Of a DNA stretch of 64,000 bases, positions 381 to 40,664 are shown piece by piece. Each line of letters starts with the position of its first letter. The first letter of the stretch is position 1. The stretch covers positions 930,341 to 994,340 of the forward strand of contig JAXLTL010000001.1 in NCBI GenBank assembly GCA_046330075.1. The letters run 5' to 3'. The DNA comes from Bacteroidia bacterium (GTDB lineage Bacteria; Bacteroidota; Bacteroidia; AKYH767-A; OLB10). A model generated the notes under the pieces. The model was given only the letters and a program-made list of their open reading frames with translations. It did no database searches and had not been told where the DNA came from. Both the position numbers and the translations under genes were made by a program.

Positions 381-3074
381 ATGAATATGCGCTATATCAT
401 CACGGTATTGCTTGTCCTTTTTTTATCCGGACCATCCGGTTTCGCACAACAATATTTAAAAAACCGCCCCGACTCCGTTCGCTCCTTCCGTCAATTACAA
501 AGAGATTTTTACGAATGGAAAAAAGAAAAAAATATCAGCAAAATCCGTGGATGGAAATCCTTCAAACGTTTCGAACAGGAAGCACAAATGCATACCAACG
601 GGCATGGCGAGCAGGATGGTGTAGAAGCCTATCTCAACGCTATGATTCAGGCAGCAGCGGAAAAATCTTCAGCACGCTCTACCCTCGCGAGTGCGCCCTG
701 GTTTCCGGTGGGTCCTTATACCCTGCCCAACAACCTCACCGGCTACATGACGAATGGAATGGGGCGCGTGAACTGCATCGCTTTCGACCCGGTTAATCCT
801 GCGGTATTTTATATCGGTGTTGGCCAGGGCGGATTATGGAAAACAACCAACAACGGAATAAGCTATACCGCCCTCACCGATAATCTCCCTATCACCCGCA
901 TTTCAGATATTGCCATCGACCCCACAAACACAAATACACTCTACATTTCGCTCTGTGATTTTGAATACGTAGGCACCAGTCTGTTTACCAATGGACGGAA
1001 AAGAAACACACATTACGGACTCGGTGTTTACAAATCTACCGACGGCGGACTCACCTGGGCACCTACCGGATTAAGCTTCCAGTTGTCGAACGGTGATGCA
1101 TCACTGATCCGGAAAATTATTGTTGATCCTGCCAACAGTAACAACGTTGTTGCCTGTGGAGTAAGTGGCATGTACAAATCCCTGAATGGCGGAACAACAT
1201 TTACACAAATCAATGATTCACTATACTGGGATATGCTGCAGGATCCGGCAAACCCCAATGTACTATATGCTGCAACCGGATGGATCATGGTTGCCGGCAT
1301 AGGCAGTGCCAATATCTTCAAGTCAACCGACTTCGGCTCTACATGGACGTTATTAAACACCGGCATTCCGCCAACCGGTTCCGTACAACGCGTTAAACTG
1401 GCCCAATCGCACAGCAACCCTTCAATTCTCTATGCATTAGGTGTTGACACACAAGGTGGCTCCTATGCGGTATACAAATCAACCGACAGTGGAGTAACAT
1501 GGACCACTACTTTTTCGGGCATGAATATTCTGGGTTATGATGATGTCACCTCCCCTGGTGGCCAGGGCAACTACGATCTCGGATTAGCAGTAGATCCACA
1601 GAACCCTGACCGGCTGATTGCCGGCGGTGTCAATCTCTGGGTGTCGGACGACGGTGGTATTAATTTTAATCCTGCCAGCCACTGGACCACCAGCTATGGC
1701 CCATCCATTCACGCCGACATCCATGATATTAAATTCCATCCATCTACCGGATACCTCTATGTATGCAACGACGGTGGAGTAAACAGAACTCAAAATCTGA
1801 TACCGGAGTCATGGGTTAACCTGAACCTGGGCACCCAGTTTCAAACCATGTGGTCCAATCTCAGCAATGGAATGAACACCACCTCCTTTTATCGGATATC
1901 CTCTTCAAAAAGCAATACAGACGAACTCATTGCCGGTGCGCAGGACAACGCGACGTTTTATTTCGATGGTGCCAACTGGATGACAGTATTCGGGGGAGAT
2001 GGGATGGACAACCTGATGGACACCACACAACAGGGATATTTCATTGCTTCATCGCAATACGGAAATTTCAGTCAGACAACCGATGGCGGAAACAGTTTCA
2101 ACGGGATTTTTGCCAATGTAAACAACGAAAATGCAGAGTGGACTTCACCGATTGCAGGAGACCCTTCAGATCCGTTGACCATGTACTGCGGTTTTCAGAA
2201 TGTAACCGTTTCCTACGATGGCGGATTATTCTGGAACGCTACCACCTCCTTACCCCTGCCACCAAATTTTTATGGCAATGAACTTTCAGCACTTGCCGTA
2301 TCACCTGTGACAAGCGGCGTACTTTGGGCGGGACGAAGGGTCAGGTATGAATTCGCCAATCCGGCCGCACTCTTTCTCAGCACCAACGACGGACAGAGCT
2401 GGACCGATGTTACCTCCAACCTCCCCGACTCACTCTATTACACCTCCCTCGAAGCAGACCGGTTCAATGCTGCTGCCGCGTATGTTAGTATGGCTGGATT
2501 TGTTTCCGGCCAAAAAGTTTATAAAACCACTACTAACGGCAATGCATGGACGAACATTAGTTACAACCTGCCCAACATTCCCGTAAACTGCATCAAACAG
2601 ATTCCCGGAAAACAGGATTTACTCGCCGCTACTGACATCGGCATCTATCTGCTTCCTGCAGGCAGCACCAGCTGGATTAATGTCAGCACCGGACTTCCCA
2701 ACGTCATTGTAACTGACATTGAATTCAACATCACCCGCAACAAAGTATTCATCTCCACCTTCGGGCGGGGCATCTGGTCAACGGACCTCAGCCTGCTCAC
2801 CGGACTCACCCATCCCGAACAGGTGTTGCTGGATTTCCGCTTAACACCCACACTCAACAACGGTCATTTCAGCATCACCATAAATGAAGCTGTTACCACA
2901 CCCGCTTCACTGGAAATACTTGACGTTAGCGGAAAATGTATCGACAACCGATCACTCAGCAAGGGAACAACTGAAATTGGATTAAGCCTGCCCGGAGGCA
3001 CCTACTTCGCCCGACTCCGGAGTGAAAAGAAGTTAGGTGTAGCACGATTTATTGTTACCGATCCGGGTTTCTGA
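381..3074 (+). CDS. secreted BNR/Asp-box repeat protein (sortilin/GH74-like beta-propeller) with a T9SS C-terminal sorting domain
   Basis: Signal peptide MNMRYIITVLLVLFLSGPSGFAQ. Multiple S-x-D-x-G-x-T-W motifs (STDGGLTW, STDFGSTW, STDSGVTW, TNDGQSW). C-terminal ~80 aa resemble a Por secretion tail. Confidence 0.8.
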   Translation: MNMRYIITVLLVLFLSGPSGFAQQYLKNRPDSVRSFRQLQRDFYEWKKEKNISKIRGWKSFKRFEQEAQMHTNGHGEQDGVEAYLNAMIQAAAEKSSARSTLASAPWFPVGPYTLPNNLTGYMTNGMGRVNCIAFDPVNPAVFYIGVGQGGLWKTTNNGISYTALTDNLPITRISDIAIDPTNTNTLYISLCDFEYVGTSLFTNGRKRNTHYGLGVYKSTDGGLTWAPTGLSFQLSNGDASLIRKIIVDPANSNNVVACGVSGMYKSLNGGTTFTQINDSLYWDMLQDPANPNVLYAATGWIMVAGIGSANIFKSTDFGSTWTLLNTGIPPTGSVQRVKLAQSHSNPSILYALGVDTQGGSYAVYKSTDSGVTWTTTFSGMNILGYDDVTSPGGQGNYDLGLAVDPQNPDRLIAGGVNLWVSDDGGINFNPASHWTTSYGPSIHADIHDIKFHPSTGYLYVCNDGGVNRTQNLIPESWVNLNLGTQFQTMWSNLSNGMNTTSFYRISSSKSNTDELIAGAQDNATFYFDGANWMTVFGGDGMDNLMDTTQQGYFIASSQYGNFSQTTDGGNSFNGIFANVNNENAEWTSPIAGDPSDPLTMYCGFQNVTVSYDGGLFWNATTSLPLPPNFYGNELSALAVSPVTSGVLWAGRRVRYEFANPAALFLSTNDGQSWTDVTSNLPDSLYYTSLEADRFNAAAAYVSMAGFVSGQKVYKTTTNGNAWTNISYNLPNIPVNCIKQIPGKQDLLAATDIGIYLLPAGSTSWINVSTGLPNVIVTDIEFNITRNKVFISTFGRGIWSTDLSLLTGLTHPEQVLLDFRLTPTLNNGHFSITINEAVTTPASLEILDVSGKCIDNRSLSKGTTEIGLSLPGGTYFARLRSEKKLGVARFIVTDPGF

Positions 3075-3190
3075 GGCCAAGCTCTAGTCCAACCCCCTCT
3101 TTTACAATACGCTATATAAAATAATAGAGAGCAAACCTCCTTATTTTAGAATATTTATCTGATTTGCTACCTTTGCAGCGCTCAAAAGCA

Positions 3191-3265
<75 letters not shown>

Positions 3266-3266
3266 A

Positions 3267-3300
3267 AAAGCCCTCCTATGCTTTAGCATCGGAGGGCTTT
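3267..3300 (+). terminator. hairpin immediately 3' of the tRNA (AAAGCCCTCC...GGAGGGCTTT)
   Basis: A 10-bp perfect stem followed by a T-containing tract. Its 3' arm is also the start of the downstream repeat unit. Confidence 0.4.
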
Positions 3301-3866
3301 GTCATTAAAAACATAGAGCGCTTGCATGCCCCGAAAGTTTTCGGGGAAGAGGTCACCGGGCGCTCTTCGCTCCGGATTGCTATCCACTAATTCTGCCCTC
3401 TGATCCTAAACTTATAGAGGGCTTTGTCATTAAAAACATAGAGCGCTTGCATGCCCCGAAAGTTTTCGGGGAAGAGGTCACCGGGCGCTCTTCGCTCCGA
3501 ATCACCATTCACTAATTCTGCCCTCCGATCCTAATCTTATTGAGGGCTTTGTCATTTATATAACATGTTTTACGTTTATTTCATTTACTCAGCACGTTTA
3601 GATCGATATTATGTCGGTTACACATCTGACCTTCAGAAGAGATTGAATGATCATAATTGTGGAATTTCTGCATTTACATCTAAGTCTAAGGACTGGGTAC
3701 TGGTGTATCAGGAAGCTTTTGAATCTCGAGAAGAGGCCGCTGAAAGAGAACGAATCATTAAAAAGAAAAAAAGCAGGAAGTATCTCGAATGGCTCATTGC
3801 AGGGAATAATTCATAGAGCGCTTGCATGCCCCGAAAGCTTTCGGGGAAGAGGTCACCCCTTCCGGC
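3294..3866 (+). repeat. tandem tRNA-Ala-derived repeats: two complete 125-bp units (3294-3418, 3419-3543) and a third unit split by the GIY-YIG ORF
   Basis: Each unit reads GGGCTTTGTCATT..CATAGAGCGCTTGCATG + hairpin CCCCGAAAG(T/C)TTTCGGGG + AAGAGGTCACCGG..ATTCTGCC. This mimics the D-stem, anticodon stem, T-arm and acceptor 3' of the adjacent tRNA-Ala, with the anticodon loop replaced by a new hairpin. Confidence 0.65.
3565..3816 (+). CDS. GIY-YIG nuclease family protein (URI domain, COG2827/UPF0213-like)
   Basis: N-terminal FYVYFIYSARLDRYYVGYTSDLQKRLNDHN matches the GIY-x10-YIG motif plus the conserved R and N. It is 83 aa. The ORF starts and stops exactly at repeat-unit junctions. Confidence 0.75.
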   Translation: MFYVYFIYSARLDRYYVGYTSDLQKRLNDHNCGISAFTSKSKDWVLVYQEAFESREEAAERERIIKKKKSRKYLEWLIAGNNS

Positions 3867-3987: not shown

Positions 3988-5511
3988 ATGGGTTACTTCC
4001 GCTACTTGTTTTTATTGATGATTTTGCTGCCGGGATCAGCAACAGCACAGTATAATGGTAATTACTGGTGTTTTGGGGATAGTGTTATGATAAATTGGAG
4101 TAACCCTAACAACCCTGTAATTGGGGCTTCTTCTTTTGATTTCCGAAACGGATCATCAAGTATTGCTGATTCTAACGGCATACTTTTATATACAGGTTAT
4201 AATTACAATGTTCAACCAGTCAGACCCTCGGTTTGGAACAAATATAATAATGATATAAATGATTCAATACGGATCAAAGGTGGCCTTTGGTATCATGCCA
4301 GTTTATTTGTACCTGATCCTGGAAATGATTCAATTATTTATTTATTTACAATTGGTGTTACTCAAGCTGAACAGTACGGTCTATACTACTCCAAAATCAA
4401 CTATAAAGCGAACAATGATTCAGGAATAGTCATTCAGAAAAATGTGCAGCTCAATAATTTTCCTGCCTTTGACGCACTCATGTCCGTGCGGCATGGTAAC
4501 GGTAGAGACTGGTGGGTGATATTTCAGAGATATACAACCAGCCTTACCCCATTTAATTCATTTTACCTTTTTCTTGTTTCGCCATCTGGTATTTCAGGTC
4601 CTGCAATTCAGAATATTGGTTCATTACGTAAAACCGGCGGCGGGCATCTGATTTTTAATAGTGATGGTACTCAATTTGTGCAATGCTCTTGGTTAGGTAT
4701 GATCGAACTCTACAATTTCGATCGCTGTACAGGTACCATCACTTCCACCATCCCTATTGAACAAGAACCATCTGTAGCTCCCTACCCACATTGGTATTCC
4801 AGCTGTGCTTTTTCACCAGATGATTCGAAATTATATGTAGCAGACTATTCGCAAACCACTTCACCATCTTATTTATGGCAATATGATTTATTAGCTACGA
4901 ATGTACCTGCGAGCAAAACCTTGATTGATTCATTTGTTGATCCTGATATGGGAATAGCGCAACTTCGCTTGGCCCCCGATAATAAAATATATTTATCAGC
5001 CTCAGATGAAGGTTTTCCATGGCCTTACCCAGATACCATCACCGCCTACACCACCATCAACAACAACCTCAGTGTTATCAACCACCCGGATAGCCTGGGT
5101 GCTGCCTGCGATTTTCAACCCTTCAGCTTTTCCCTCGGTGGTGCCCGCACCTACTACGGCCTTCCCAACAACCCCGATTACGAGTTGGGGGCTTGGGTAG
5201 GTAGTCCTTGTGATACGCTAACTGTGGGCCTCACCCCCGGCCCATCAGAGGAGAAGGGAGCATGGATGCAGGCATGGTATAACCACGAATGGAACATGAT
5301 TCACGTCAACGCGGCGCAGTTGAAAGGGAAGAAAGGTGTGTTGCGGTTGTTTGATATCGAAGGAAGAATCGTTTTCGAAAAACCGGCGGAGGTGGTGGCG
5401 GGTGGGTATTATACGACGGAGATTTATATGAATGAGTTGTCAAGTGGGGTTTATGTCGTCAACCTGGTCACGGATCGGGAGACGTTGTCGTTTAAGACTA
5501 GTAAATACTAG
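3988..5511 (+). CDS. secreted T9SS cargo protein, paralog A of a 3-member family (conserved N-terminal WCFGDS motif plus T9SS CTD)
   Basis: Signal peptide MGYFRYLFLLMILLPGSATAQ. The C-terminal ~115 aa are about 90% nucleotide-identical to 9287..10837 and 39123..40664, ending GVYVVNLVTDRETLSFKTSKY. Confidence 0.75.
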   Translation: MGYFRYLFLLMILLPGSATAQYNGNYWCFGDSVMINWSNPNNPVIGASSFDFRNGSSSIADSNGILLYTGYNYNVQPVRPSVWNKYNNDINDSIRIKGGLWYHASLFVPDPGNDSIIYLFTIGVTQAEQYGLYYSKINYKANNDSGIVIQKNVQLNNFPAFDALMSVRHGNGRDWWVIFQRYTTSLTPFNSFYLFLVSPSGISGPAIQNIGSLRKTGGGHLIFNSDGTQFVQCSWLGMIELYNFDRCTGTITSTIPIEQEPSVAPYPHWYSSCAFSPDDSKLYVADYSQTTSPSYLWQYDLLATNVPASKTLIDSFVDPDMGIAQLRLAPDNKIYLSASDEGFPWPYPDTITAYTTINNNLSVINHPDSLGAACDFQPFSFSLGGARTYYGLPNNPDYELGAWVGSPCDTLTVGLTPGPSEEKGAWMQAWYNHEWNMIHVNAAQLKGKKGVLRLFDIEGRIVFEKPAEVVAGGYYTTEIYMNELSSGVYVVNLVTDRETLSFKTSKY

Positions 5512-5536
5512 TTACAAGAGCATTTGTTGGTTTAAC

Positions 5537-5556
5537 CCTGCCTGCCGGCAGGCAGG
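5537..5556 (+). promoter_or_regulatory. perfect 20-bp palindrome CCTGCCTGCCGGCAGGCAGG in the 3' UTR shared by the CTD genes
   Basis: The identical palindrome and the following CGCAGCGAAAACGGCGACTCGCAACG recur at 11867-11912. A variant sits at 3871-3890. There is no T-tract, so it is not a canonical terminator. Confidence 0.35.
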
Positions 5557-5583
5557 CGCAGCGAAAACGGCGACTCGCAACGT

Positions 5584-7035
5584 CCCGATAGCTATCGCAT
5601 TGGCGTTAAGCTAAGCCGATTACTTTTCAACTCAAACTTCTTGATAATTAGCTTGGTATTAGAATAAAAAAGGCTTCCCCTTTGCATAATTATGTTGCGC
5701 TAACAAACTCTAACATGCGCACGGGAAGCCAAAACAAATATATGCAACATGACTTGAATTCAAAGTTAAAGTTGCTAGGTATCACAAAACTGGAGAGAGA
5801 ATTGGGTTTTAGAAAACGACGTACAGGCAAGATCAGATTGCAAGCACTTGTTGAAAGTTTTTATAAGTCATGTTTTCGGAGTAAATTTTCATTGTCAAGC
5901 TGGGCTTTTCAGTTGTCGGCTCAGGAAGGACTCTGCATTAGCAAGCAAGCTGTCTTTTACAGGGTCAATAGTTCATTAACTAAATTATTGGAAAGACTGC
6001 TCAACAATGCACTCGTTGCACAGATAAAGCCGAGCCAGACTTCACAGAATAGCAGATTTAAAAATGTATATATCCAGGATGGAATGGCAATTAAGTTGCC
6101 GGACAATTTAAGTACAAAATACAAAGGAAATTACTCGCGCGGCAAGATAAAAGCGGTAGCGAAATTGCAAGTAATTTATAATGCCAGTAAACGAAATTTT
6201 AAATCTATTCTGCTAACTCCTTTCACAAGAAATGACCAGACAGCCTCATCCGACATATTGCCGTTACTAAAGAAGGGAGATTTGGTCATACGCGATATGG
6301 GATATTTTGTAATGCCCACCTTTAGACAAATCGTACAACGTAAGGCAGACTTCATCAGTCGATATAAAAAAGATGTGGCCATAATTGATTTAAAGAGTAA
6401 GCAGGCGGTGTCAATAATACAATTATTGAGAGGAAAAACGGTTTTGAAACGAAAAGTTATTCTTGGTGCAAAAGAACAGCTTGAATGCACGTTGATAGCG
6501 GTTAAGGTAGCTCCATGTTTGGCGGAGGCAAGACGAAGAAAAGCCATGAAAGATCGTGATAAGCGACTAAGGTATACCCAGGATAAAAAAATATTGCTTG
6601 GATGGGATATTTATCTGAGTTCTTCACATGATCTGGACGTAAAAGACGTTCAAGATTATTATGCAGCTCGTTGGCAAATAGAGATCATTTTTAAGTCTTG
6701 GAAAAGTGGTTTGAGTTTAGAGAAGTCCATTCCGGGTCAACTGAATTATGATCACTTAGCGGTAACAGTTATCTATCTTCATTTGTTACTGATTGTACTT
6801 ATGATTACGCCCATATACAACACCTTGAAATCACTTATACGTAGGCCCGAAGATAGAGTAAGCCTCTTGAAATCAGTTAAAATCATCTTAATGATGATCA
6901 TTAACAATCGAATACAATTTGACTTAAATGTTGCCTCTAAATTGGCCAACTTTACTCTTTATGAAGTTAGGAACCGGGACACGATGGCAGATAAACTGAG
7001 GATTTTAGCTTAACGCTAATGCGATAGCTATCGGG
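5584..7035 (+). mobile_element. IS4/IS5-superfamily insertion sequence (~1.45 kb) with 28-bp terminal inverted repeats
   Basis: IRL 5584-5611 CCCGATAGCTATCGCATTGGCGTTAAGC and IRR 7008-7035 are reverse complements with 1 mismatch. They flank a single DDE transposase ORF. No clear target-site duplication. Confidence 0.8.
5682..7013 (+). CDS. IS4-like DDE transposase
   Basis: Motif DYYAARWQIEIIFKSWK fits the Y(2)R(3)E(6)K IS4 signature. Candidate catalytic D residues lie in YIQDGMAIKLPD and LVIRDMGYF. The stop codon lies inside IRR. Confidence 0.8.
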   Translation: MHNYVALTNSNMRTGSQNKYMQHDLNSKLKLLGITKLERELGFRKRRTGKIRLQALVESFYKSCFRSKFSLSSWAFQLSAQEGLCISKQAVFYRVNSSLTKLLERLLNNALVAQIKPSQTSQNSRFKNVYIQDGMAIKLPDNLSTKYKGNYSRGKIKAVAKLQVIYNASKRNFKSILLTPFTRNDQTASSDILPLLKKGDLVIRDMGYFVMPTFRQIVQRKADFISRYKKDVAIIDLKSKQAVSIIQLLRGKTVLKRKVILGAKEQLECTLIAVKVAPCLAEARRRKAMKDRDKRLRYTQDKKILLGWDIYLSSSHDLDVKDVQDYYAARWQIEIIFKSWKSGLSLEKSIPGQLNYDHLAVTVIYLHLLLIVLMITPIYNTLKSLIRRPEDRVSLLKSVKIILMMIINNRIQFDLNVASKLANFTLYEVRNRDTMADKLRILA

Positions 7036-7179
7036 AGCAGAGAAATCTTCATAACATTAAAAACATTTTAACCATTTAACACTTTAACTCCCGCCTTACG
7101 GGATTAACATTTATAATACTTATAACCTTCCCCCTACGGTAACCTCAGTTTAATTCAGGATTTTTCTTAAATTTGATTG

Positions 7180-9279
7180 ATGCTCCTCCGCTCCAACACC
7201 TTCACCTCCTCCGGCGGCTATTTGCTGGCACCCTACAATACCGTTCACAAATTTGCGGCTATCGTGCTGGATGATGTGGAAAGGGTGGTGATTGGGGATA
7301 GTTCGCTGGATGGGTCGGTGAGTGCGAATTTGTTTGAAAACTCAAATTTTGGAATCAGAGCAAATAAATCGAGTTTTGAACTTTACAATAATACCTTCAA
7401 TAACATCACTGAATTGGATGGTTCGGCACTGCCAGTTGATCGAAATGGGACTTGCGTATTTAATCGTTCTGCCAGTGATTATAATGACCGTAAACTCATT
7501 GTAGGAAATCTGGATTATACATTGACTTCTCCAGCTGTGTCCCGAAGAAATAGTTTCACAAACTCACGTACAGCAATTTTCAGTATTGGCGAGTCAAACA
7601 TAACCATCTATAACAATGAGTTTGGTTCTCCTGTCAGCAACCAGAATTTCATTGAACAGAATTGTGTTTCAATTTTCAACAATCCAAACAAATCCATTAA
7701 CATTAGCAGGGAAAATGATTTCTACGATTACAGGCTTGGTATTTTGATCAGAGGTCTTAACGATCAAACCCAAATAGACATAAGTAAGAATAGTTTTTAC
7801 AATTGTCGTCTGACCGCACCCGTAGCCAATTTCGACGGTACCGCCATTTTAGTAACATCCGTTCTTCCTGTCAACCGTATGCTGGATGCCCGGATCCACA
7901 ATAATCAAATCGGCATTTTGGATGGCTCGAACTATTACCAGCCCCGAATAGGTATCCATATTGCCAATACGGGTGGGGTGAAGATTGAAGAGAACGAAAT
8001 CCGATTTAATCTTACTTCAGTTCCCGGTGACCTATATAGGGGCATCAGATTAGAATCTGCTCCGGAATGTGTAGTATCAACTAATACAATTGAAAACACA
8101 GGGACTGTATCTTTGATCGGCAATCAATTGGTAGGAATACGGACGGATCAGTCATCTATGCCAATAATAAAATGCAACACGTTGGTCAGATTAGGACAAT
8201 CGTTGCAGTTTGTGAATAGTAACGATTATGTATCATTGATCTCAAATTTTTTAAATGGTTATGATTTAGGGGTTCAGTTAGGTGATGGTGGCGCAGGTAC
8301 TTTCATTGGAGACTTTCAAGGTGCGCCTGGCATTGGATTAGATAATCTCTGGATGGACAGTCAGAATGACCGGGTGGAAGGATTTTTATCGAATTTCTCA
8401 CCTATGCCATGGTACCATCACGGGTCTGAAATCTTCAGCAACAATGGAGCCCCGGTTAGATCCGACAATTCAAGTTCAGGTTCGATTGATCCAATTGGAA
8501 ACCAGCCAGCATATCTTGATCAACCTTGCGGCGATGATAACTCAACGGAAAGGAGTACGGGTTTTGGCTCTATTGCTGCCGATACTGCCCGCTATGAAGG
8601 CCCATATGCGGATCAATTTCTATATACTCGAAAAGCTACCGCATTCTCCTATCTGATGGCTGATACCGGGAGAATTACCATGGGACGCAGTGATGATCAG
8701 GTATTTGAAAAACTTATCAATGATCTTTCCATTTCGAATATTGGAAAGTTCGATGCAATTATTAAACTATCACAAATCGACAGATGGAATGAAGCCAATG
8801 AAATATTGAGTACAATCAACGATACCAATAATCATGAATACTATTTGAAGCAGGTGCTTTCAATTCTAATTGAAACAGCAATAGAAGAACGTGAACTTAA
8901 TAGCAGCGACACCAACTTACTTTTTGAAATTGCCCATTTGCATTCAATGGAAGGAGGTCTCGCAGTGAAAATCGCAAGGGTGGCATTGCAACTGGAGTTG
9001 GAAGACATTGGCAGCGGCAGCAGATTGTATTCACAACTAGAAGACAAATCTTTGCCGGAAATAACGCTCTGGCCGAATCCGGTACGCAGCACAATAAATA
9101 TTAACCGGCACGAAACTTTCAGGTATCAGATTTATGATGCAGCAATGCGATTGGTTTTAAGTGGTGAAAAGAAGGATGGGATGATTAATGTGGAGGTTCT
9201 TGCGAATGGGTATTATTCTCTAATTGTCACAGACAAAGAAAGAAGGTATAAGCCACTTGGGTTTTGCAAAATAGATTAA
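7180..9279 (+). pseudogene. right-handed parallel beta-helix repeat protein with a T9SS CTD that lacks a signal peptide; probably a 5'-truncated cargo gene
   Basis: N/G-rich imperfect repeats typical of a pectin-lyase-like beta-helix. C-terminal ...YYSLIVTDKERRYKPLGFCKID matches a Por secretion tail. An in-frame TGA sits at 7174-7176 and the N-terminus MLLRSNTFTSSGG is not a signal peptide. The gene lies 145 bp downstream of the IS4 element. Confidence 0.55.
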
Positions 9280-9286
9280 TGAAACC

Positions 9287-10837
9287 ATGTTTAGAATACA
9301 AAAAATAATTTATATAATCGGGGCCCTAATCTATATTAGCCTGAAAACTCATGCGCAGTTTACGAATAACAACTGGTGTTTCGGTGATAGTGCTGGTGTT
9401 CGTTTTGATTCGGCGATAAGTATATTTCGATGTGGAACTGGCTTCACCAGAGGGACAGCAACAATTTCTGATATCAATGGGGATTTGATTTTCTATGGGG
9501 CAACCAGTAACACGACAAATGAATTTACCGGTCAAATTAAACAAGGTAAATTGTTTAATAAATACCATACTGAACTAATAAATGGTGACACTTTAGTTGG
9601 TGGCAATTGGTATCATTGTATGCTTGTTTTACCAAAATCAATAATCGACAGTACATTTTATGTATTTGTGGCTGGGGTGGTAGTACCTGACACCGGTTTA
9701 TGGTATAGCATTGTGGATATGAAATTACAGGGGGGAGTGGGTGCAGTGGTACAAAAAAATGTCAGATTTGAAACGCACCCTGTTCAGGATATGCTCACTG
9801 CCGTGAAACATGGCAATGGCAAGGATTGGTGGTTGGTAACCAGACGATGGCGTTCAAGTGGTGCCGGAATCGGGAATGATGAATTCTGGGTTTATCTTGT
9901 AGATTCAATTGGAATTCATCCATTAGCTGTACAGCATATTGGAACCTCAAATTATAATGGAGCCGGTGATATGAGTTTCAATTCTACAGGTGACAAATTG
10001 GCCTTGTGTGGCTGGGGTAATTATTTGGGTGTTTTCGACTTCGATCGATGCACCGGCCAAATCTCAAATGAAACCCTGATAGAACCGAACACCCAACTGG
10101 GCAACCACCCATACCGTTGGTACACCAGTGTTGTTTTTTCACCAAGTGGGCAATTTTTATATGTGAATTCATCGCAGGAAGCATATCAGACAAGTGGTAA
10201 ACTATATCAGTTTGATTTAACTGCCACAAATATTGCTACTAGCAGGGTATTAATTGACTCTTTTCCTACAAATGCAGAGAATCATGGAATGGAATTAGGA
10301 CCAGATGGGAAAATTTATATTAGTGCACAGGAATTTGGAGGGTGCACTTACCCATGGCCTAGTGGTTGTTTTAGCACTATAAATTCAAACCTCAGTGTAA
10401 TTAACTCTCCAGATAGCTTGGGGTCTGCATCAAACTTCCAACTATTTGCTCTTAACTTAGGAGGCTATCGTGCTTATAGGGGTCTCCCCAACAACCCCGA
10501 TTACGAGCTGGGGGCATGGGTGGGCAGTCCTTGTGATACGTTAACTGTGGGCCTCACCCCCGGCCCCTCTCCAGAGGAGAGGGGAGCCTGGCTGCAGGCA
10601 TGGTATAATCACGAATGGAATATGATCCATGTGAATGCGGCGCAGTTGAAAGGAAAGAAAGGAATGTTGAGGTTAATGGATATAGAAGGCAGAATCGTTT
10701 TCGAAAAACCGGCGGCGGTGTTGGCAGGAGGGTATTATACGACGGAGATTTACATGAATGAGTTGTCAAGTGGGGTTTATGTTGTCAACCTGGTTACGGA
10801 TAGAGAGACGTTGTCGTTTAAAACCAGTAAATTCTAG
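9287..10837 (+). CDS. secreted T9SS cargo protein, paralog B
   Basis: Signal peptide followed by NNNWCFGDSAGVRFD. Homologous along its whole length to 39123..40664(-), with a conserved 3' end ...VNLVTDRETLSFKTSKF. Confidence 0.75.
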   Translation: MFRIQKIIYIIGALIYISLKTHAQFTNNNWCFGDSAGVRFDSAISIFRCGTGFTRGTATISDINGDLIFYGATSNTTNEFTGQIKQGKLFNKYHTELINGDTLVGGNWYHCMLVLPKSIIDSTFYVFVAGVVVPDTGLWYSIVDMKLQGGVGAVVQKNVRFETHPVQDMLTAVKHGNGKDWWLVTRRWRSSGAGIGNDEFWVYLVDSIGIHPLAVQHIGTSNYNGAGDMSFNSTGDKLALCGWGNYLGVFDFDRCTGQISNETLIEPNTQLGNHPYRWYTSVVFSPSGQFLYVNSSQEAYQTSGKLYQFDLTATNIATSRVLIDSFPTNAENHGMELGPDGKIYISAQEFGGCTYPWPSGCFSTINSNLSVINSPDSLGSASNFQLFALNLGGYRAYRGLPNNPDYELGAWVGSPCDTLTVGLTPGPSPEERGAWLQAWYNHEWNMIHVNAAQLKGKKGMLRLMDIEGRIVFEKPAAVLAGGYYTTEIYMNELSSGVYVVNLVTDRETLSFKTSKF

Positions 10838-11277
10838 TTGAATTCAGAATTCAGGATGCAGAATTCAGAATTGCCCAACCTCTCGGGACACTTTTTTGAT
10901 TTTGCGATCAAACACCCAATAGAATCAAAACCTACAGGGTTGTTTTAGTTAATGAAGTCAGAGAAAAAAACGGCCCTCAGCACCGCTGGTTTTTGAAGCG
11001 CAGTGAACGGTGGAATAGACGGAGGGAAGCGGCGAATGGAATGAGCCGATCACCCGACGGCCCGCCGTACACAAGCGAAAAAAATTCCGCGATAGCGGAA
11101 AGGCGGTGGCGGTTCCTGAGCCTGTCGAAGGATGCAGGCCTTGATCTTTTTGGGTTACCCTGAAGCAGAACGAAGTACGCTTCAGGGTGACTGGGGGTTT
11201 AAGGGGACAGCGTCCCCTTGGGATGTTTAAGTATGGAGAATGCTGAATGAAATGGACAGATTTGCCGGATTGGGAGA

Positions 11278-11345
11278 ATGGGGTTTATGTTGTCAACCTG
11301 GTCACGGACAGGGAGACGTTGTCGTTTAAGACTAGTAAATTCTAG
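11278..11345 (+). pseudogene. 3'-terminal fragment of a T9SS CTD coding sequence, unit 1 copy
   Basis: Encodes ...GVYVVNLVTDRETLSFKTSKF* with no upstream gene body. About 94% identical to the 3' end of 9287..10837. Confidence 0.5.
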
Positions 11346-11775
11346 TCGAATTCAGAATTCAAGATGCAGAATTCAGAATTGCCCCCGCCCCGGAATACAA
11401 TTTTTAATTTTGCTGATTAAATAACCAATAGCAAACAAAAACCGACAGGCATTTTAATAGCAATAGAAACAAGAGAAAAAAATCGGCCCTCAGCATATCC
11501 GGTTTTTTGAGTGAAGGAAGTGGCGGAAAAGTTCGAGGGTACCCCGATAGCTATCGGGGCCGAATGAAATGAGGAGATCCCCCCTGAGAACCCGCCACGG
11601 ACAAGCTCAAAAAATTCCGCGAAAGCGGAAAGGATATGGTGCAGGCCTTGATCTTTTTGGTTACTTTTTCTATCAAGAGAAAAAGTGACCAGGGGTTTAA
11701 GGGGACAGCGTCCCCTTGGGATGTTTAAGTATGGAGAATGCTGAATGAAATGGACAGATTTGCCGGATTGGGAGA

Positions 11776-11843
11776 ATGGGGTTTATGTTGTCAACCTGGT
11801 CACGGACAGGGAGACGTTGTCGTTTAAGACCGGGAAATTCTAG
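11776..11843 (+). pseudogene. 3'-terminal fragment of a T9SS CTD coding sequence, unit 2 copy
   Basis: Same fragment ending ...SFKTGKF*. It is followed by the palindrome and 3' UTR sequence that also follows gene 3988..5511. Confidence 0.5.
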
Positions 11844-12016
11844 TTACAGCAGCATTTGTTGGTTTAAACCTGCCTGCCGGCAGGCAGGCGCAGCGAAAAC
11901 GGCGACTCGCAACGAACGCAACGGCACGGGGGAAAACATTTATATCCCTGAGGCTTCGCTCCGGGCGCAAGCGCTTCGCAACTCTGTAACTCAGTAGCTC
12001 TGTAACTCTGTAACTC

Positions 12017-28658: not shown

Positions 28659-28983
28659 GCCTGAGCGTAGCCGATACCCGCACCCTTCGGTTACGCTCAG
28701 GGTCCGGGTATTTTGGATTAAAAAAATACGCTCAGGGTCCGGGTATTTTGGATTGAAAAAAAATAATACGCTCAGGGTCCGGGTATATTAGATAAAAAAA
28801 ATAATACGCTCAGGGTCCGGGTATTTTGGATTAAAAAAAATACGCTCAGGGTCCGGGTATTTTGGATTAAAAAAAATACGCTCAGGGTCCGGGTATATTA
28901 GATAAAAAAAATAATACGCTCAGGGTCCGGGAATTTTGGATTGAAAAAAAAATAATACGCTCAGGGTCCGGGTATTTTGGATA
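28659..28983. repeat. tandem array of 8 copies of a ~28-bp unit TACGCTCAGGGTCCGGGTATTTTGGAT(T) separated by A-runs, preceded by a partly complementary segment
   Basis: Copies start at about 28692, 28727, 28767, 28805, 28841, 28877, 28915 and 28956. The leading segment CCTGAGCGTA..GATACCCG is complementary to parts of each unit. Lies between convergent rho and the Mur ligase gene. Confidence 0.8.
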
Positions 28984-29016
28984 GAAGAAAAAAATATTTC
29001 AATCCAATAACAACTA

Positions 29017-34708: not shown

Positions 34709-36580
34709 ATGAACATCTTCACCGCCGAGAGCATCTCCAAAGCTTATAACGAGAAACCGCTTTTTACGAAGATTGATATATCGCTGGGAGAAAACCAGAA
34801 GATGGCGCTGATAGCAGCCAATGGCAGCGGCAAAACCACACTGATGCGGATGCTGGCCGGCAAAGAAGTGCCGGACGAAGGCAAGATATCTTTCCGTAAC
34901 GACTTACGTGTGGGCTACCTCGAACAGGACCCGTATTTCCATCCGGAATCAACCGTGATGGATTGTATCTTCGAACCCGGCCATCCCATTCTGCATGCAA
35001 TTGGAGAATACGAACGTTTACTCGACGAAGGCGAAATCGACCAGTCGAAGCTGCAGATCGTGATGGACACCATCGACTCGCTCAATGGCTGGGACTATGA
35101 AGCGAGAGCGGCGGAGGTGCTTGGAAAACTGGGAATCCATCATCTTGAAAAACCAACTGCGCAACTCAGCGGCGGACAGAAAAAACGCATTGCCCTGGCC
35201 CGTTTACTGATCGAAGACTTCGACTTTCTTCTCCTCGACGAACCTACCAACCATCTCGATCTGGATATGATTGAATGGCTGGAGCAATATCTGAAGAGGC
35301 AAAACAAACCACTGGTGCTGATTTCGCACGACCGGTATTTTCTCGATAACGTATGTAACTACATCGTAGAGCTCGAGAACAACAAAGTGTACAACTACAA
35401 CGGCAACTACGCGTATTATCTCGAGAAAAAAGAAGAACGCGAAGCACAGGAACGGGCGAGCATTGATAAAGCCAGAAATTTATACCGTCGTGAACTCGAC
35501 TGGATGCGCCGACAGCCCAAAGCCCGCACTACGAAATCGAAGTCGAGGCAGGATGCTTTTTATGATGTAGAAGAAGAAGCAAAAGGAAAACGCACCGAAG
35601 CCCGGATGCAGATTACGATGCAGATGAATCGCCTCGGCAGTAAAATTCTTGAGCTGGAAAATATCTGCAAAGCTTACGATGGCCGCCAGTTACTGAAAGA
35701 CTTCTCCTACACCTTCAAACGTGGCGAAAAAATCGGACTGATCGGCAGAAACGGAGCCGGCAAATCGACACTGCTCAACATTATCATGGAACTGGTAAAG
35801 CCTGATCAGGGTCGTGTGAAATCAGGCGAGACCGTGGTGTATGGCTACTATTCGCAGCAGGGCATGCAGTTGCCGGAGGATAAACGTGTGATTGAAGTCG
35901 TGAAAGATATTGCAGAATACGTGGAAACCGGCAATGGAAACTGGATGGGTGTTTCGCAGTTCCTGAATCACTTTCAGTTCACCGGGCCCAAGCAACATGC
36001 CTTTGTCAGCAAACTCAGCGGAGGAGAAAAGAAACGATTGTATTTGCTTACCATTCTGCTGAAAAACCCGAACTTCCTCATTCTTGACGAGCCCACCAAT
36101 GATCTTGACATCGTTACCCTGAACATCCTTGAAGAGTTCCTCGAAGGCTATCAGGGATGTTTGTTAATGGTAACGCACGACCGTTATTTCATGGACCGGC
36201 TGGTGGATCATGTGTTCGTACTGGATGGAAATGGAGGTGTAAAAGACATTCACGGCAACTACACAGAATACCGTGAGAACTTTGGAAGTCTGACGCCAAC
36301 TAAGGAAGAAAAGAAAGAAACTGTCTCAAAAAAAGAAGAACCTGCAGCTCCTGTCCGGAAAAAAGGCAAACTCAGCTTCAAGGAACAAAAAGAACTCGAA
36401 CAAATCGAGAAGGAGATCTCCGATCTGGAGGAGAAAAAGAAGATCCTGGTGGATAAAATGAACTCGGGCTTATCGCACACCGAAATGCAGCAATGTTCGG
36501 ATGAATTCGAAAAATGCAATAATGCACTCGATGAAAAATCGATGCGATGGCTTGAATTGCAGGAACTGCTGGAGGGATGA
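34709..36580 (+). CDS. ABC-F family ATPase (two tandem ABC domains, no TMD; translation-factor type)
   Basis: Two Walker A motifs (GANGSGKTT, GRNGAGKST). Two LSGGQ/LSGGE signatures. Inter-domain linker. C-terminal coiled-coil. Confidence 0.85.
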   Translation: MNIFTAESISKAYNEKPLFTKIDISLGENQKMALIAANGSGKTTLMRMLAGKEVPDEGKISFRNDLRVGYLEQDPYFHPESTVMDCIFEPGHPILHAIGEYERLLDEGEIDQSKLQIVMDTIDSLNGWDYEARAAEVLGKLGIHHLEKPTAQLSGGQKKRIALARLLIEDFDFLLLDEPTNHLDLDMIEWLEQYLKRQNKPLVLISHDRYFLDNVCNYIVELENNKVYNYNGNYAYYLEKKEEREAQERASIDKARNLYRRELDWMRRQPKARTTKSKSRQDAFYDVEEEAKGKRTEARMQITMQMNRLGSKILELENICKAYDGRQLLKDFSYTFKRGEKIGLIGRNGAGKSTLLNIIMELVKPDQGRVKSGETVVYGYYSQQGMQLPEDKRVIEVVKDIAEYVETGNGNWMGVSQFLNHFQFTGPKQHAFVSKLSGGEKKRLYLLTILLKNPNFLILDEPTNDLDIVTLNILEEFLEGYQGCLLMVTHDRYFMDRLVDHVFVLDGNGGVKDIHGNYTEYRENFGSLTPTKEEKKETVSKKEEPAAPVRKKGKLSFKEQKELEQIEKEISDLEEKKKILVDKMNSGLSHTEMQQCSDEFEKCNNALDEKSMRWLELQELLEG

Positions 36581-36596
36581 ATCAGGCTGCAAGGCG

Positions 36597-36665
36597 CTTG
36601 CGTCCCGAGCGAAGCCTCAGGGCTAAAAGGCGCTTGCGTCCTGAGCGAAGCCTCAGGGCTTCAGG
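36597..36665 (+). repeat. two tandem copies of a 33-bp element AAGGCGCTTGCGTCC(C/T)GAGCGAAGCCTCAGGGCT, also present inverted at 11941-11973
   Basis: Direct sequence comparison shows 2 mismatches against the reverse complement of 11941-11973. Confidence 0.45.
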
Positions 36666-36715
36666 CTACAGTCCCGCAGCGAGCTGCGGGAGCAGGCTAC
36701 AAGTCTGCATAACTA

Positions 36716-36976
36716 TCGTCCCACCTATCAATCACATCCCCCATATCATCACCCCTATCAATCAAATCCTCCCATATCATCACCCCTATCAATCACATCC
36801 CCCATATCATCACCCCTATCAATCAAATCCCCCCATATCATCACCCCTACCAATCACATCCCCCATATCATCACCCCTATCAATCACATCCCCCATATCA
36901 TCACCCCTATCAATCACATCCCCCATATCATCACCCCCTATCAATCACATCCCCCATATCATCACCCACTTCAATC
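36716..36976 (+). repeat. 30-bp minisatellite (about 9 copies of CATCACCCCTATCAATCACATCCCCCATAT)
   Basis: Head-to-tail copies with point variants. The overlapping ORF 36577..36981 is a translation artefact. Confidence 0.8.
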
Positions 36977-37018
36977 TGTAGCAACCCCCTATTAACTGGA
37001 GAGATTCTATGATTTTCA

Positions 37019-38038
37019 TTAGTAGTGCTGTCCATGGCTTTGGTCAACTGTTATGCAAAGGTAGGCATCGGCTGCGGGCTTGTCAAGGCTCATGCCGAGC
37101 GGTTGATTTGTCGGTTTTGATACAGCGGTATCAACCGGCCTTGACAAGCCATCATCCGCTGCAAAGGTGCTCTGCATAAGAGTTGACAAAGCCATTCCTT
37201 GATCCCATTTTTGCTGAGGCGTAATGCGGCCCAGATTTTTATGCTTTCGTTTATTATTATACCAATGCATGTAATCTTCAATATGCTTCTTAGCTTCATA
37301 ATAACTTAGAAATTGATATCGGCAATATAATTCCCTCTGTTGGATGCTGTGGAAGGATTCAATATAGGCGTTTTCTTCGGGTGTAGCAACGTGGGTAAAC
37401 TCTTGACGCGCTTCCATTTCTTGTAATGTGCGTCTGACTTCATTAGCCAGGAACTGCGAACCATTGTCATTGCGGATAATTACGCCCTTTAAATCATATT
37501 TAAGATGCAGATACCGGAACATATCTATCACATCCTTTTTTCGTACACTGGACTGGAATATCCAGTGAATGATCTTTCGGCTGTATATATCCATAATCGA
37601 CAGCTGATAATACCATCTGCTTTCTCCGTGCACCCAGACATACTTGATATCAAGACATAAATACTCCATTGGGCGGGAGGCTTCGACCTTGCGATACTGA
37701 ACCCTCTCTCTCTTGCCCTTTGTCCGGATAACTTTCCCCAATAGCAACTTTTCTTCATCCATGATCCGGTACACTTTTTTATCGTCAATCCAATATCCCA
37801 TTTCCCGAAGCTCTGCCGTCACATTCTGATAGCCATATGCATTGTAAGGTCCCAGAATAATGCCTTTGATCTCCGCTACGACTTGTTGATTCTCTACCAA
37901 CTCATTCTTGAAGAGTGTATGCGTACTCGGCTTTCGGCCCGGTTTACCCTCTGTGGGCTTGTAGTAATAGGAGCTGGAGGGAATTCCTAGCCACTTCATC
38001 AGATCCGTTGTGCTCGCCTTACCTATATACGCCTGCAT
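37019..38038 (-). CDS. IS3 family transposase OrfB (rve integrase core; expressed as OrfAB by -1 frameshift)
   Basis: DDE integrase core. HWYNNKRKHKNLGRITPQQ C-terminal motif typical of IS3/IS150. The -1 frame is open back to the A_AAA_AAA site. Confidence 0.8.
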   Translation of the reverse strand: MQAYIGKASTTDLMKWLGIPSSSYYYKPTEGKPGRKPSTHTLFKNELVENQQVVAEIKGIILGPYNAYGYQNVTAELREMGYWIDDKKVYRIMDEEKLLLGKVIRTKGKRERVQYRKVEASRPMEYLCLDIKYVWVHGESRWYYQLSIMDIYSRKIIHWIFQSSVRKKDVIDMFRYLHLKYDLKGVIIRNDNGSQFLANEVRRTLQEMEARQEFTHVATPEENAYIESFHSIQQRELYCRYQFLSYYEAKKHIEDYMHWYNNKRKHKNLGRITPQQKWDQGMALSTLMQSTFAADDGLSRPVDTAVSKPTNQPLGMSLDKPAADAYLCITVDQSHGQHY

Positions 38039-38043
38039 AATGG

Positions 38044-38355
38044 CTACTTTCGTTTGATTTGGATAGGAGTTTTTTTTAAAAGCTCCTCCTTCACCTCAAG
38101 CTCTAATGCCTGACGTGCGATGATCTTCTTCAACCGCTCGTTCTCTTGTTCCAACTCCTTTACTTTGGGATCAACTGCCACACGACTAGGCTTTAAGCCC
38201 CCCAAACCCTGCTCAAGGTACTTTTTCTTCCACCTGTTTAACAATGACGGTGCCAGGTTATACTTCCGGCATGTCTGGGCAAATCCCTCTCTGGAGGCCT
38301 CCTGAATGAGGCTCAGGCGCTCCTCAGGACTGAATGTTCTTTTGACTCTTGTCAT
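38044..38355 (-). CDS. IS3 family transposase OrfA (HTH plus leucine zipper)
   Basis: HTH_21-like N-terminus. LELEVKEELLKK coiled coil ending at the slippery site. Confidence 0.8.
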   Translation of the reverse strand: MTRVKRTFSPEERLSLIQEASREGFAQTCRKYNLAPSLLNRWKKKYLEQGLGGLKPSRVAVDPKVKELEQENERLKKIIARQALELEVKEELLKKTPIQIKRK

Positions 38356-38944: not shown

Positions 38945-39122
38945 TATTTTTCTCTATCGTTGTCATTTTCTGGCTGTAGCAGGTTTTAAAAGTTGTAAGG
39001 GTTATAAATGTTATAAATGTTAAAATGTTATCCGCCGTCCGGCGGAGAGTTATGAGAATTTCCCCGCGCTCTCCGCGTAACCGCCGCGCTCTCCGCGTTT
39101 AAAACGAAAGATGATCCGGTAA

Positions 39123-40664
39123 CTAGAATTTACTGGTCTTAAACGACAACGTCTCCCGATCTGTGACCAGGTTGACCACATAAACCCCCTCCGAAATTTC
39201 ATTCATATAAATCTCCGACGTATAATAACCTCCCGCCAATACTTCCATCTGTTTTTCGAAAACGATTCTGCCTTCGATATCCAGCAACCGCAACACCCCT
39301 TTCTTCCCCTTCAACTGCGCAGCATTCACATGAATCATATTCCATTCATGGTTATACCACGCCTGCATCCACGATGCCTCCGGTGTTGGGCCGGGGATGA
39401 GGCCCACAGTTAACGTATCACAGGGACTACCCACCCAGGCGCCCAGCTCGTAATCGGGATTGTTGGGGAGGCCGTAGTAGGTGCGGGCACCGCCGAGGGA
39501 AAAACTGAAGGGTTGAAAATCACAGGCGAGACCAAGGGAATCGGGTTGGTTGATGACGGAGAGGTTTTCGTTGATATAATTCCAGCAGGTAGAAGGATAC
39601 GGAAAGCCGGAGCCTGGACCAGCATAAACACAACTGATGTAAATTTTACCATCCGGTGCCAGCTCCATTCCACCGGGAGTTGCTTCAATTGGAAATGAGT
39701 CTAGTAACACTCTTGAGTTGGGAATATTTGACGCGTTCAAATCAAACTGGTAAATTTTGCTGTTTAGATTATAGATGTCCTGTGCAGAAGTAACATATAG
39801 TTTATTGCCGTCTTCTGAAAATACCGCATCCATATATAGTTTGAACAGGCTTCCTGGAGGCGCATATTGTTCAATTACTGTTTCATTTGAAATCAATCCG
39901 GAACATCTGTCAAAATCAAATACTCCAAGATAACTGCCAAGTCCGGCTAATACTATTCTATCACCTGAATGATTGAAGCTTATATCACCACCATTATCAA
40001 AATGCGAAGTTCCTACAAATTGAGTGGGCAATGGATGTATACCTACTGAGTCTACCAGATACACCCAGAATTCATTGTTCTTTACATACCCCGGCGCATA
40101 GGTCCATCTGCGTGTTACCAGCCACCAGTCCTTTCCATTTCCATGACGTACTGCAGCCAGCATATCTTGCACGGGATGTGTTTCAAATCGGAAATTCTTT
40201 TGCACCACCTGACCTAAACCTCCCTGCAATTTCATGTCCACAATATTTACCCATAAGCCCGTATCGGGATAAACAACTCCGGCCACAAACACATAAAAGG
40301 TGCTGTCCGTAACCGACTTTGGGAGAACGAGCATATCATGATACCATTCACCTCCAACTAAGGTGTCACCATTAAATAACTTTTGATGTAGTTTATTAAA
40401 AAGTTTACCTATCCTTAATAGACTACTATTAGAGTTTGTTGAGTTGCCGGTTGCACCATAAAACAGCAGATTGCCTTGTACATCAGAAATAGAAGAAGTT
40501 CCTCGAAAAAAGCCACTCCCACTTTTGAAAAAGGCAATACCATTATCGAAATTAATTCCAGCACTATCACCAAACACCCAATTATTATTCCTGAATTGAG
40601 CATATGTTTTCAACTGACAGAACGATATCAGTATTAACAGCCAGATAATGTTTCGACTCATCAT
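39123..40664 (-). CDS. secreted T9SS cargo protein, paralog C
   Basis: MMSRNIIWLLILISFCQLKTYAQFRNNNWVFGDSAGINFD N-terminus. Full-length homology to 9287..10837. The same near-identical CTD. Confidence 0.75.
   Translation of the reverse strand: MMSRNIIWLLILISFCQLKTYAQFRNNNWVFGDSAGINFDNGIAFFKSGSGFFRGTSSISDVQGNLLFYGATGNSTNSNSSLLRIGKLFNKLHQKLFNGDTLVGGEWYHDMLVLPKSVTDSTFYVFVAGVVYPDTGLWVNIVDMKLQGGLGQVVQKNFRFETHPVQDMLAAVRHGNGKDWWLVTRRWTYAPGYVKNNEFWVYLVDSVGIHPLPTQFVGTSHFDNGGDISFNHSGDRIVLAGLGSYLGVFDFDRCSGLISNETVIEQYAPPGSLFKLYMDAVFSEDGNKLYVTSAQDIYNLNSKIYQFDLNASNIPNSRVLLDSFPIEATPGGMELAPDGKIYISCVYAGPGSGFPYPSTCWNYINENLSVINQPDSLGLACDFQPFSFSLGGARTYYGLPNNPDYELGAWVGSPCDTLTVGLIPGPTPEASWMQAWYNHEWNMIHVNAAQLKGKKGVLRLLDIEGRIVFEKQMEVLAGGYYTSEIYMNEISEGVYVVNLVTDRETLSFKTSKF

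Follow-up and report, generated by a model that had tools for sequence, protein, structure and literature searches.

The 64,000-nucleotide stretch of DNA analysed here (the window) comes from a metagenome-assembled genome (MAG) of a "Bacteroidia bacterium" and carries three paralogous genes, A, B and C, encoding proteins with a beta-propeller-like body and a C-terminal domain (CTD) of the kind found in cargo of the type IX secretion system (T9SS). Comparison of these genes with one another and with their relatives indicates that their 3' module very probably evolves in concert, through homologous gene conversion among scattered copies, in tracts anchored to the 3' end. A preliminary description of the window had proposed recombination or gene conversion confined to the CTD-encoding 3' region, and for a region of linker and CTD the proposal held up: tail and body trees are incongruent, synonymous sites in the tail are identical in excess, linkers are shared within genomes and the tracts run a short way past the stop codon. 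The three open reading frames (ORFs) were present exactly where that description had placed them, all on one 1.44-Mb contig, and they and their tails are as follows.

3988..5511, + strand: paralog A, 507 amino acids; signal peptide, 7-bladed propeller-like body, linker and T9SS-type CTD.
9287..10837, + strand: paralog B (U0Y08_03980), 516 amino acids; AlphaFold model with a mean predicted local distance difference test score (pLDDT) of 86.
39123..40664, - strand: paralog C, 513 amino acids; tail at ~39123-39473 (to 39572 in comparison with A).
5158..5511, + strand: homogenised tail of A, 88.5% identical to B and 85% to C; synonymous divergence (dS) 0.53-0.61 versus saturated bodies; homology to C starts at ~5059.
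10481..10837, + strand: homogenised tail of B; propeller end (GLPNNPDYELGAWVGSPCDTL), disordered linker and CTD beta-sandwich.

In blastn comparisons, the tails of A and B were 88.5% identical over 357 nucleotides (nt), those of B and C 84.0% over 357 nt and those of A and C 85.2-85.5% over 447-453 nt; E-values ranged from 1e-110 to 1e-148. The tails are strongly similar, at a level somewhat below the ~90% over the last ~370 nt that had been claimed. Left of the breakpoints, the bodies showed only the moderate similarity described earlier, with nucleotide identities of 49% (A/B), 44% (A/C) and 61% (B/C). Identity in sliding windows along a codon-based alignment was not uniform: in the bodies it stayed at ~0.45 (nucleotide) and 0.35 (amino acid) between A and either B or C and at ~0.62 (nucleotide) between B and C, and in the last ~118 codons it jumped to 0.84-0.90 (nucleotide). 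Maximum chi-square analysis located the A/B and B/C breakpoints at PNNPDYE and the A/C breakpoint 36 codons before it, each significant by permutation (p<=0.001). The sliding-window profile and the breakpoints together rule out a recent whole-gene duplication.

The contrast extends to synonymous sites. Among the window paralogs, the proportion of synonymous differences was 0.38-0.45 in the tails versus 0.75-0.82, which is saturated, in the bodies, and dS of the tails in this genome was ~0.5-0.7. Where residues were identical, the codons were also identical at a fraction of 0.69-0.72 in the window tails versus 0.40-0.45 in the bodies (Fisher p=3e-15). As the same-codon fraction of these tails against most foreign genomes sits at the baseline of 0.35-0.5, the tails have no intrinsic constraint at the nucleotide level. 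The window also holds two T9SS cargo genes outside the family, which served as controls.

7177..9279, + strand: unrelated T9SS cargo gene, directly upstream of B; Por_Secre_tail match of 26.7 bits; CTD 28-35% identical to the family CTD, with a score of ~0.
381-3074: second unrelated T9SS cargo gene, the other CTD-bearing window gene outside the family.

The CTDs of these two genes were 19-35% identical to the family tail with alignment scores of ~0, which rules out a generic T9SS constraint on the CTD.

The same pattern runs through the family. A tail scan of species-representative genomes returned 73 loci, with 3-9 paralogs in many MAGs, from which 62 full-length genes were extracted and each split into body and tail at GLPNNPDY. 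At equal body identity, tails were 0.80-0.87 identical within genomes versus 0.47-0.72 between genomes. For A, the nearest body lies in another MAG (L041; body 0.69, tail 0.62) and the nearest tail is that of B (tail 0.94, body 0.37); B and C likewise pair with a foreign body and an own-genome tail. Among 1335 triplets in which a foreign gene was closer in the body, the paralog was closer in the tail in 1041 (1041:294), and the ratio was 84:0 for the window genome and 278:0 for JAGOJO. In neighbour-joining trees, the five paralogs of the window MAG (A, B, C and the full-length genes P0034 and P0047) were monophyletic in 100 of 100 bootstrap replicates for the tail and in none of 100 for the body; the corresponding values were 100 versus 0 for JAGOJO, 95 versus 0 for JBBRND and 100 versus 0 for JBBQQQ.

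The linker, which is 0.25 identical between genomes, reaches 0.63 within them, 0.71 in the window MAG and near-identity in JAGOJO. Tails in JAGOJO are 95-97% identical at the amino-acid level with a same-codon fraction of 0.84, indicating that homogenisation is more recent there; a tail dS of 0.5-0.7 indicates that it is not recent in the window genome. Seven genomes have tracts of the same shape: identity climbs at ~-440 nt, holds level at 0.85-0.95 between ~-360 nt and the stop codon, and falls away within 40-80 nt beyond it. The 5' limits of the homogenised tracts vary (codon ~412 for A/B, ~376 for A/C and ~120 for P0034/P0047). P0034 and P0047 are 82-100% identical from about column 120 on, that is, over three quarters of their length, and have divergent N-termini, and P0006, from another MAG, is a mosaic in which the signal peptide is C-like, the body B-like and the pre-tail segment A/C-like. 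The variable limits and this mosaic point to ordinary homology-dependent conversion, not to a precise programmed junction. As six tests and the unrelated-CTD control agree, we infer concerted evolution at the DNA level, that is, gene conversion.

Several observations weigh against this interpretation. No conversion event was seen directly, and the tail dS means that homogenisation in the window genome was old or infrequent. The tails are the most conserved segment of the protein, so part of the contrast between tail and body is ordinary purifying selection. Except in the window, where three genes share one contig, the grouping of genes by genome relies on MAG binning. Finally, JADKFA, JADJMG, JADJPB and CAZHSC have no genome-specific tail clades, one tail type being common to several of these MAGs.

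Overall, these data suggest a model where A, B, C and at least two further paralogs would be old, functionally distinct members of a T9SS-secreted beta-propeller family, whose 3' module (the last propeller segment, the disordered linker, the CTD and a few tens of nucleotides of 3' flank) would be homogenised within each genome by non-reciprocal homologous recombination between dispersed copies. The process may reinforce itself: only the tail, at 85% nucleotide identity or more, would be similar enough for homologous pairing, so that tracts would begin and end there, and bodies at 45-60% identity would block their extension. Conversions reaching into the bodies would be rare or purged by selection. 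RecA-type conversion is the presumed mechanism, and a selective benefit may lie, for example, in having the same CTD and linker throughout, suited to the T9SS sorting machinery of that genome.

The proteins themselves fit a secreted, modular design. The AlphaFold model of B, built with 72 homologues, predicts a signal-peptide helix (residues 3-18), an all-beta body (~25-400), a disordered linker (419-432) and a seven-stranded C-terminal beta-sandwich (435-515; pLDDT ~85-90); as in T9SS type A cargo, the predicted sandwich of ~70-90 residues follows a linker. The fold of A was inferred from this model. Together, the model and Foldseek confirmed the beta-propeller-like body described earlier as a confident 7-bladed fold, and Foldseek matched it to generic 7-bladed propellers only, for example lactonase-like 3hfq, 3u4y and 4qrj, with no specific function assignable. 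No solved structure was found among sequence relatives of the family. Putative Sec signal peptides can be read by eye in all three translations, as hydrophobic N-termini ending in ATAQ, THAQ or TYAQ, followed by Q. The N-terminal motif NNNWCFGDS, said to be common to all three, is exact in B only, A having NGNYWCFGDS and C NNNWVFGDS. The CTDs score 17.7-22.6 bits against Pfam Por_Secre_tail PF18962 (curated cut-off 27) and 17-22 bits against TIGR04183 (curated cut-off 23). None of the T9SS machinery genes sought (PorU/V, SprA, GldKLMN) was identified among the scanned ORFs, which were those of the window only.

The family had been taken to have three members, which applies within the window; the same MAG contains at least two more full paralogs, P0034 and P0047, with the same tail, and two CTD-only ORFs, P0132 and P0136. 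In public data the family exceeds 1600 proteins, nearly all of ~500 amino acids, frequently named 'T9SS type A sorting domain-containing protein' by NCBI and many with precomputed PF18962 matches. Among the loci of the genome scan, the tail was found on one body family only. Several copies of this Bacteroidia family also occur in MAG records titled 'Bifidobacterium breve' or 'uncultured Bifidobacterium sp.' (L012, L022 and L039 in CALQEU; L023, L028, L029 and L033 in CAZHSC), and these labels look wrong.

Downstream of B, the tail end is followed by a B-type flank, an element X1, a tail-end fragment F1, a second B-type flank, X2, F2 and an A-type flank, with a period of ~500 nt.

10838..10959, + strand: B-type 3' flank with GAATTCA(G) mini-repeats, repeated at 11346-11472; orthologous to the flank in L077/L080.
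10960..11259, + strand: X1, copy 1 of a structured RNA-like element; covariance model 158 bits, covariation, no Rfam, transfer RNA (tRNA) or transfer-messenger RNA (tmRNA) match.
11279..11345, + strand: F1, tail-end fragment, last 22 codons and stop; remnant of an orphan CTD after X, with internal deletion.
11473..11757, + strand: X2, copy 2; 79% identical to the X1 unit overall and 97% over the 3' 160 nt.
11777..11843, + strand: F2, second tail-end fragment, last 22 codons and stop.
11844..11914, + strand: A-type 3' flank after F2, 96% identical to 5512-5582; in origin probably the flank of either the orphan CTD or the B locus.

The CTD-fragment cassettes reported downstream of B do exist, as two fragments, and hold only the last 22 codons with no body sequence. 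F1 and F2 are what remains, after decay and tandem duplication, of a separate multicopy module consisting of X and a CTD-only ORF. X is a conserved non-coding, structured RNA-like element of ~270-300 nt with an invariant 20-mer, TGCAGGCCTTGATCTTTTTG, through which metagenome contigs carrying it were found (four of the eleven matches to the 20-mer were due to chance). In these contigs, an intact CTD-only frame 70-71 codons long (MIHVNAA...KF*) follows X, and the junction between the two is fixed. X always lies directly upstream of such a frame, most of which the window copies have lost. Beyond the window, two tandem X copies follow a family gene in L023 of another MAG (2930-3246 and 3322-3589), and X is also present at L074, L075, L077, L078, L080, L083-L086, L089 and L090. 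L077 and L080 look orthologous to the B locus and have a single X with a full orphan CTD. An ancestral module of X and orphan CTD at the B locus may have had most of its CTD deleted before being duplicated in tandem by an unequal crossover between the B tail end and the orphan tail end; the layout downstream of B is exactly as expected from such a crossover.

CTD-only ORFs form 40 protein clusters (P0121-P0160), most exactly 71 amino acids long (MIHVNAA...KF), on dozens of metagenome contigs (loci include L074, L075, L083 and L085-L091), and two lie elsewhere on the 1.44-Mb contig of the window (U0Y08_04620 and U0Y08_01745). They occupy intergenic positions among housekeeping genes, for example beside rplU/rpmA and in the nifU-sucB interval, and some form tandem pairs. 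The ratio of nonsynonymous to synonymous divergence (dN/dS) was 0.18-0.48 for orphan CTDs versus 0.05-0.27 for real tails. Orphan CTDs are relaxed but not free, which fits remnants refreshed by occasional conversion or a weakly constrained small ORF.

There is strong support for X as a structured element. Of 69 predicted pairs, 21 had changes on both sides; 94.4% of paired cells were consistent with pairing versus 86.3±0.8 in shuffles (0/500), and the covariation score was 0.282 versus 0.119 in shuffles and 0.04-0.075 with slid partners. X may lie on the + strand, which folds better (-74.6 versus -61.8 kcal/mol), but the - strand has a conserved hairpin followed by a T-run. Two copies had no Rfam 15 match at permissive thresholds, X matched no tRNA or tmRNA, and plasmid or phage sequence was rejected for want of a blastn match. 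Decayed family coding sequence was rejected as well (Smith-Waterman z ~1), as was a coding 3' domain: the frame differs between copies, and a variable hairpin wholly changes its sequence and keeps its pairing. X, a conserved structured element ~270 nt long, was also compared with the bridge RNA of IS110 elements, and in two loci (L086 and L091) an IS110 transposase gene adjoins the module; however, this is a discrete 1.25-kb IS110 inserted downstream of the module, in a flank element resembling repetitive extragenic palindromes (REP-like) and separate from X. The orthologous locus L085 has X and the CTD without the insertion sequence (IS), in contrast to L086, and tblastn found no transposase homologue beside the other X copies, so a bridge RNA was rejected.

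X, the CTD-only ORF and the REP-like flank could together be an undescribed, functional multicopy module that exploits or feeds the tail-recombination network, although we regard this as doubtful; its role might be, for example, that of a regulatory or mobile RNA element or of a leader for the CTD-only product. Another proposal, in which this module, or a circular or duplicated intermediate of it, recombines in and out of tails and so spreads one CTD, is unlikely. The module exists in multiple dispersed copies, some immediately behind a family gene, as at B, where a real tail end and an orphan tail end show recombination; and the direct-repeat layout matches a Campbell-type insertion. However, a covariance model of X covering 161 positions matched the window MAG and a few relatives only, and detected no X within 2.5 kb of 70 family loci of most other genomes. 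As JAGOJO, with the strongest homogenisation, is among them, tail homogenisation does not require X. Moreover, the orphan CTD ends P0132 and P0136 differ from the tail ends of A, B and C, and the homogenised tracts begin ~45 codons upstream of the start of orphan homology.

Gene conversion among the genes themselves also has to be set against purifying selection alone, in which the T9SS machinery would demand similar CTDs with no DNA exchange between paralogs. This would account for the tail being the best conserved part of the family alignment and for its dN/dS of 0.06-0.13. It would not be expected to produce genome-wise clustering at odds with the body tree, the excess of identical synonymous codons, the within-genome sharing of a disordered and otherwise hypervariable linker or similarity continuing past the stop codon, and it sits poorly with the unrelated CTDs of the other T9SS cargo genes in the window. 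We therefore consider it very improbable as a full explanation.

About equally improbable is programmed surface variation, with bodies shuffled onto a constant tail by way of silent cassettes. In Neisseria pilE/pilS, Borrelia vlsE and Anaplasma msp2, a single expression site is supplied by promoterless partial cassettes that carry the variable part. The window shares with them gene conversion between related sequences composed of a constant and a variable part: a constant 3' end is combined with divergent bodies, tail fragments lie downstream of B and mosaicism beyond the tail exists (P0006; P0034/P0047). In contrast to those systems, however, every paralog is a complete, full-length gene equipped with a signal peptide of its own, and what the partial copies retain is constant tail sequence (the last 22 codons in F1 and F2), with no variable segment. 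The genes are dispersed 4-28 kb apart among housekeeping genes (neighbours include those for Rho, valyl-tRNA synthetase, chorismate synthase, ComEC, Bat proteins, a Mur ligase and BshC), with C 28 kb from B on the opposite strand. Bodies form stable orthogroups, each with a closer orthologue in other genomes than among its own-genome paralogs, and a tail dS of 0.5-0.7 argues against frequent ongoing exchange. No invertase, tyrosine or serine recombinase or reverse transcriptase was found among the window ORFs, which include only IS4 and IS3 transposases, and the array downstream of B yielded no inverted repeats, so the window offers neither a dedicated recombinase nor an inverted-repeat switch. 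The suggestion in the preliminary description that bodies are swapped onto a constant tail at this locus was thus not supported. A diversity-generating retroelement with the fragments as template repeats was also rejected, as the window ORFs include no reverse transcriptase and the mismatches are not adenine-biased; the B tail end differs from F1 by ordinary transitions that affect T, A, C and G.

An assembly or binning artefact, with repeated tails collapsed or mis-joined in metagenome assemblies, is scarcely credible: ~360-nt repeats may confuse short-read assemblers, and error-prone, frameshift-bearing long-read assemblies are the source of several related loci, but the window tails differ at 11-16% of positions and hence were not collapsed, A, B and C lie on one 1.44-Mb contig, and both the tail pattern and the X module recur in many independent assemblies.

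The closest documented phenomenon is in Helicobacter pylori babA/babB and homA/homB, where the 3' 'segment 3' clusters by strain and the other segments by gene (PMC2795765), a pattern attributed to intragenomic gene conversion (PMC2795765, citing Pride & Blaser 2002 and Santoyo & Romero 2005). In both cases the genes are exported paralogs whose conserved 3' part is the export or anchoring module. In H. pylori this module is an outer-membrane beta-barrel, whereas here it is a T9SS CTD with its linker. Genomes of uncultured environmental Bacteroidia carry at least five members each of the present family, which has no evident link to antigenic variation and was compared between species-level MAGs instead of strains. 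In Porphyromonas gingivalis, the T9SS cargo genes rgpA, kgp and hagA share C-terminal modules through domain rearrangement and recombination (PMC5266723). There, the shared parts are large adhesin-domain blocks in combinatorial arrangements, with allelic exchange between strains, whereas the window family homogenises a single short 3' module and leaves the catalytic or binding bodies distinct. Full-text searches pairing T9SS with gene conversion or concerted evolution returned no description of CTD-confined homogenisation. Tail homogenisation does not amount to a new kind of system; it is a further clear case, seen across the family, of an evolutionary process already known.

The 3' flanks of the family genes contain insertion sequences and repeats.

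5512..5582, + strand: 3' flank of A, non-coding, with palindrome CCTGCCTGCCGGCAGGCAGG; 96% identical to the flank after F2.
5583..7036, + strand: IS4-family insertion sequence; Pfam/NCBIfam IS4 transposase; 32-nt inverted repeats at 5583-5614 and 7005-7036, 97% identical.
37019-38355, - strand: IS3-family element, HTH_Tnp_1 orfA and rve orfB; ~0.8 kb beyond the 3' end of C.
39058..39103, - strand: GC-rich REP-like 3'-flank element (TTTAAACGCGGAGAGCGCGGCGG...); blastn matches in 13 loci, all ~20 nt after the stop codon.

The IS4 element sits 71 nt after the stop codon of A, interrupts the A 3' flank and is not part of the homogenisation mechanism; with the IS3 near C, two of the three paralogs have an insertion sequence near their 3' flank. 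The REP-like element is kept after family genes in many genomes, as judged by blastn and alignment by eye. In two modules, a 1.25-kb IS110-family element lies at the same target within this flank (...AACCGCGGGGA^GCGCGG...), in L086 at ~762-2013 and in L091, with an empty site in L085, which suggests that IS110 targets the REP-like element sequence-specifically. The palindrome CCCGATAGCTATCGGG recurs at the inverted-repeat end of the IS4 (5584-5597), as an insertion within X2 (11541-11559), in the 3' flanks L002, L004 and L006 of other MAGs and in L074; it could represent a miniature IS end or a REP-like repeat. Intergenic 3' flanks in this lineage also abound in short tandem arrays of 7-9-nt period, whose units vary (GAATTCA, AACTCTGT, AACAATTT, TACGAAT, CGAAATG, GCTTGCAG and others) and which occur in the window at 10840-10872, 11348-11380, 11980-12016, 7062-7088 and 38983-39031 and in many flanks in L001-L073. 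Elsewhere in the window, a 125-nt unit is repeated 2.1 times (94% identical; 3292-3556) just 5' of A and directly upstream of a stand-alone GIY-YIG nuclease-domain ORF of 83 amino acids (3565-3816). An array at 28692-28996, between rho and the Mur ligase gene, consists of about eight 36-37-nt units (TACGCTCAGGGTCCGGGTATTTTGGAT and an A-run), and another at 36724-36976, of 8.3 units of 30 nt, overlaps the ORF at 36577-36981.

Together, these data describe a secretion signal and linker that evolve as a unit, separately from the cargo body, and are homogenised within each genome. CTD sequences are consequently unusable for inferring orthology, and CTD-based phylogenies of cargo proteins will mislead. 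Genome-specific CTD "dialects" may reflect co-adaptation with the sorting machinery. The repeated tails are, in addition, recombination substrates that reshape nearby DNA through tandem duplications, orphan CTDs and landing sites for insertion sequences. The module of X and orphan CTD is the most novel lead of the window, and its RNA-like element is an uncharacterised structured motif that merits study in its own right.

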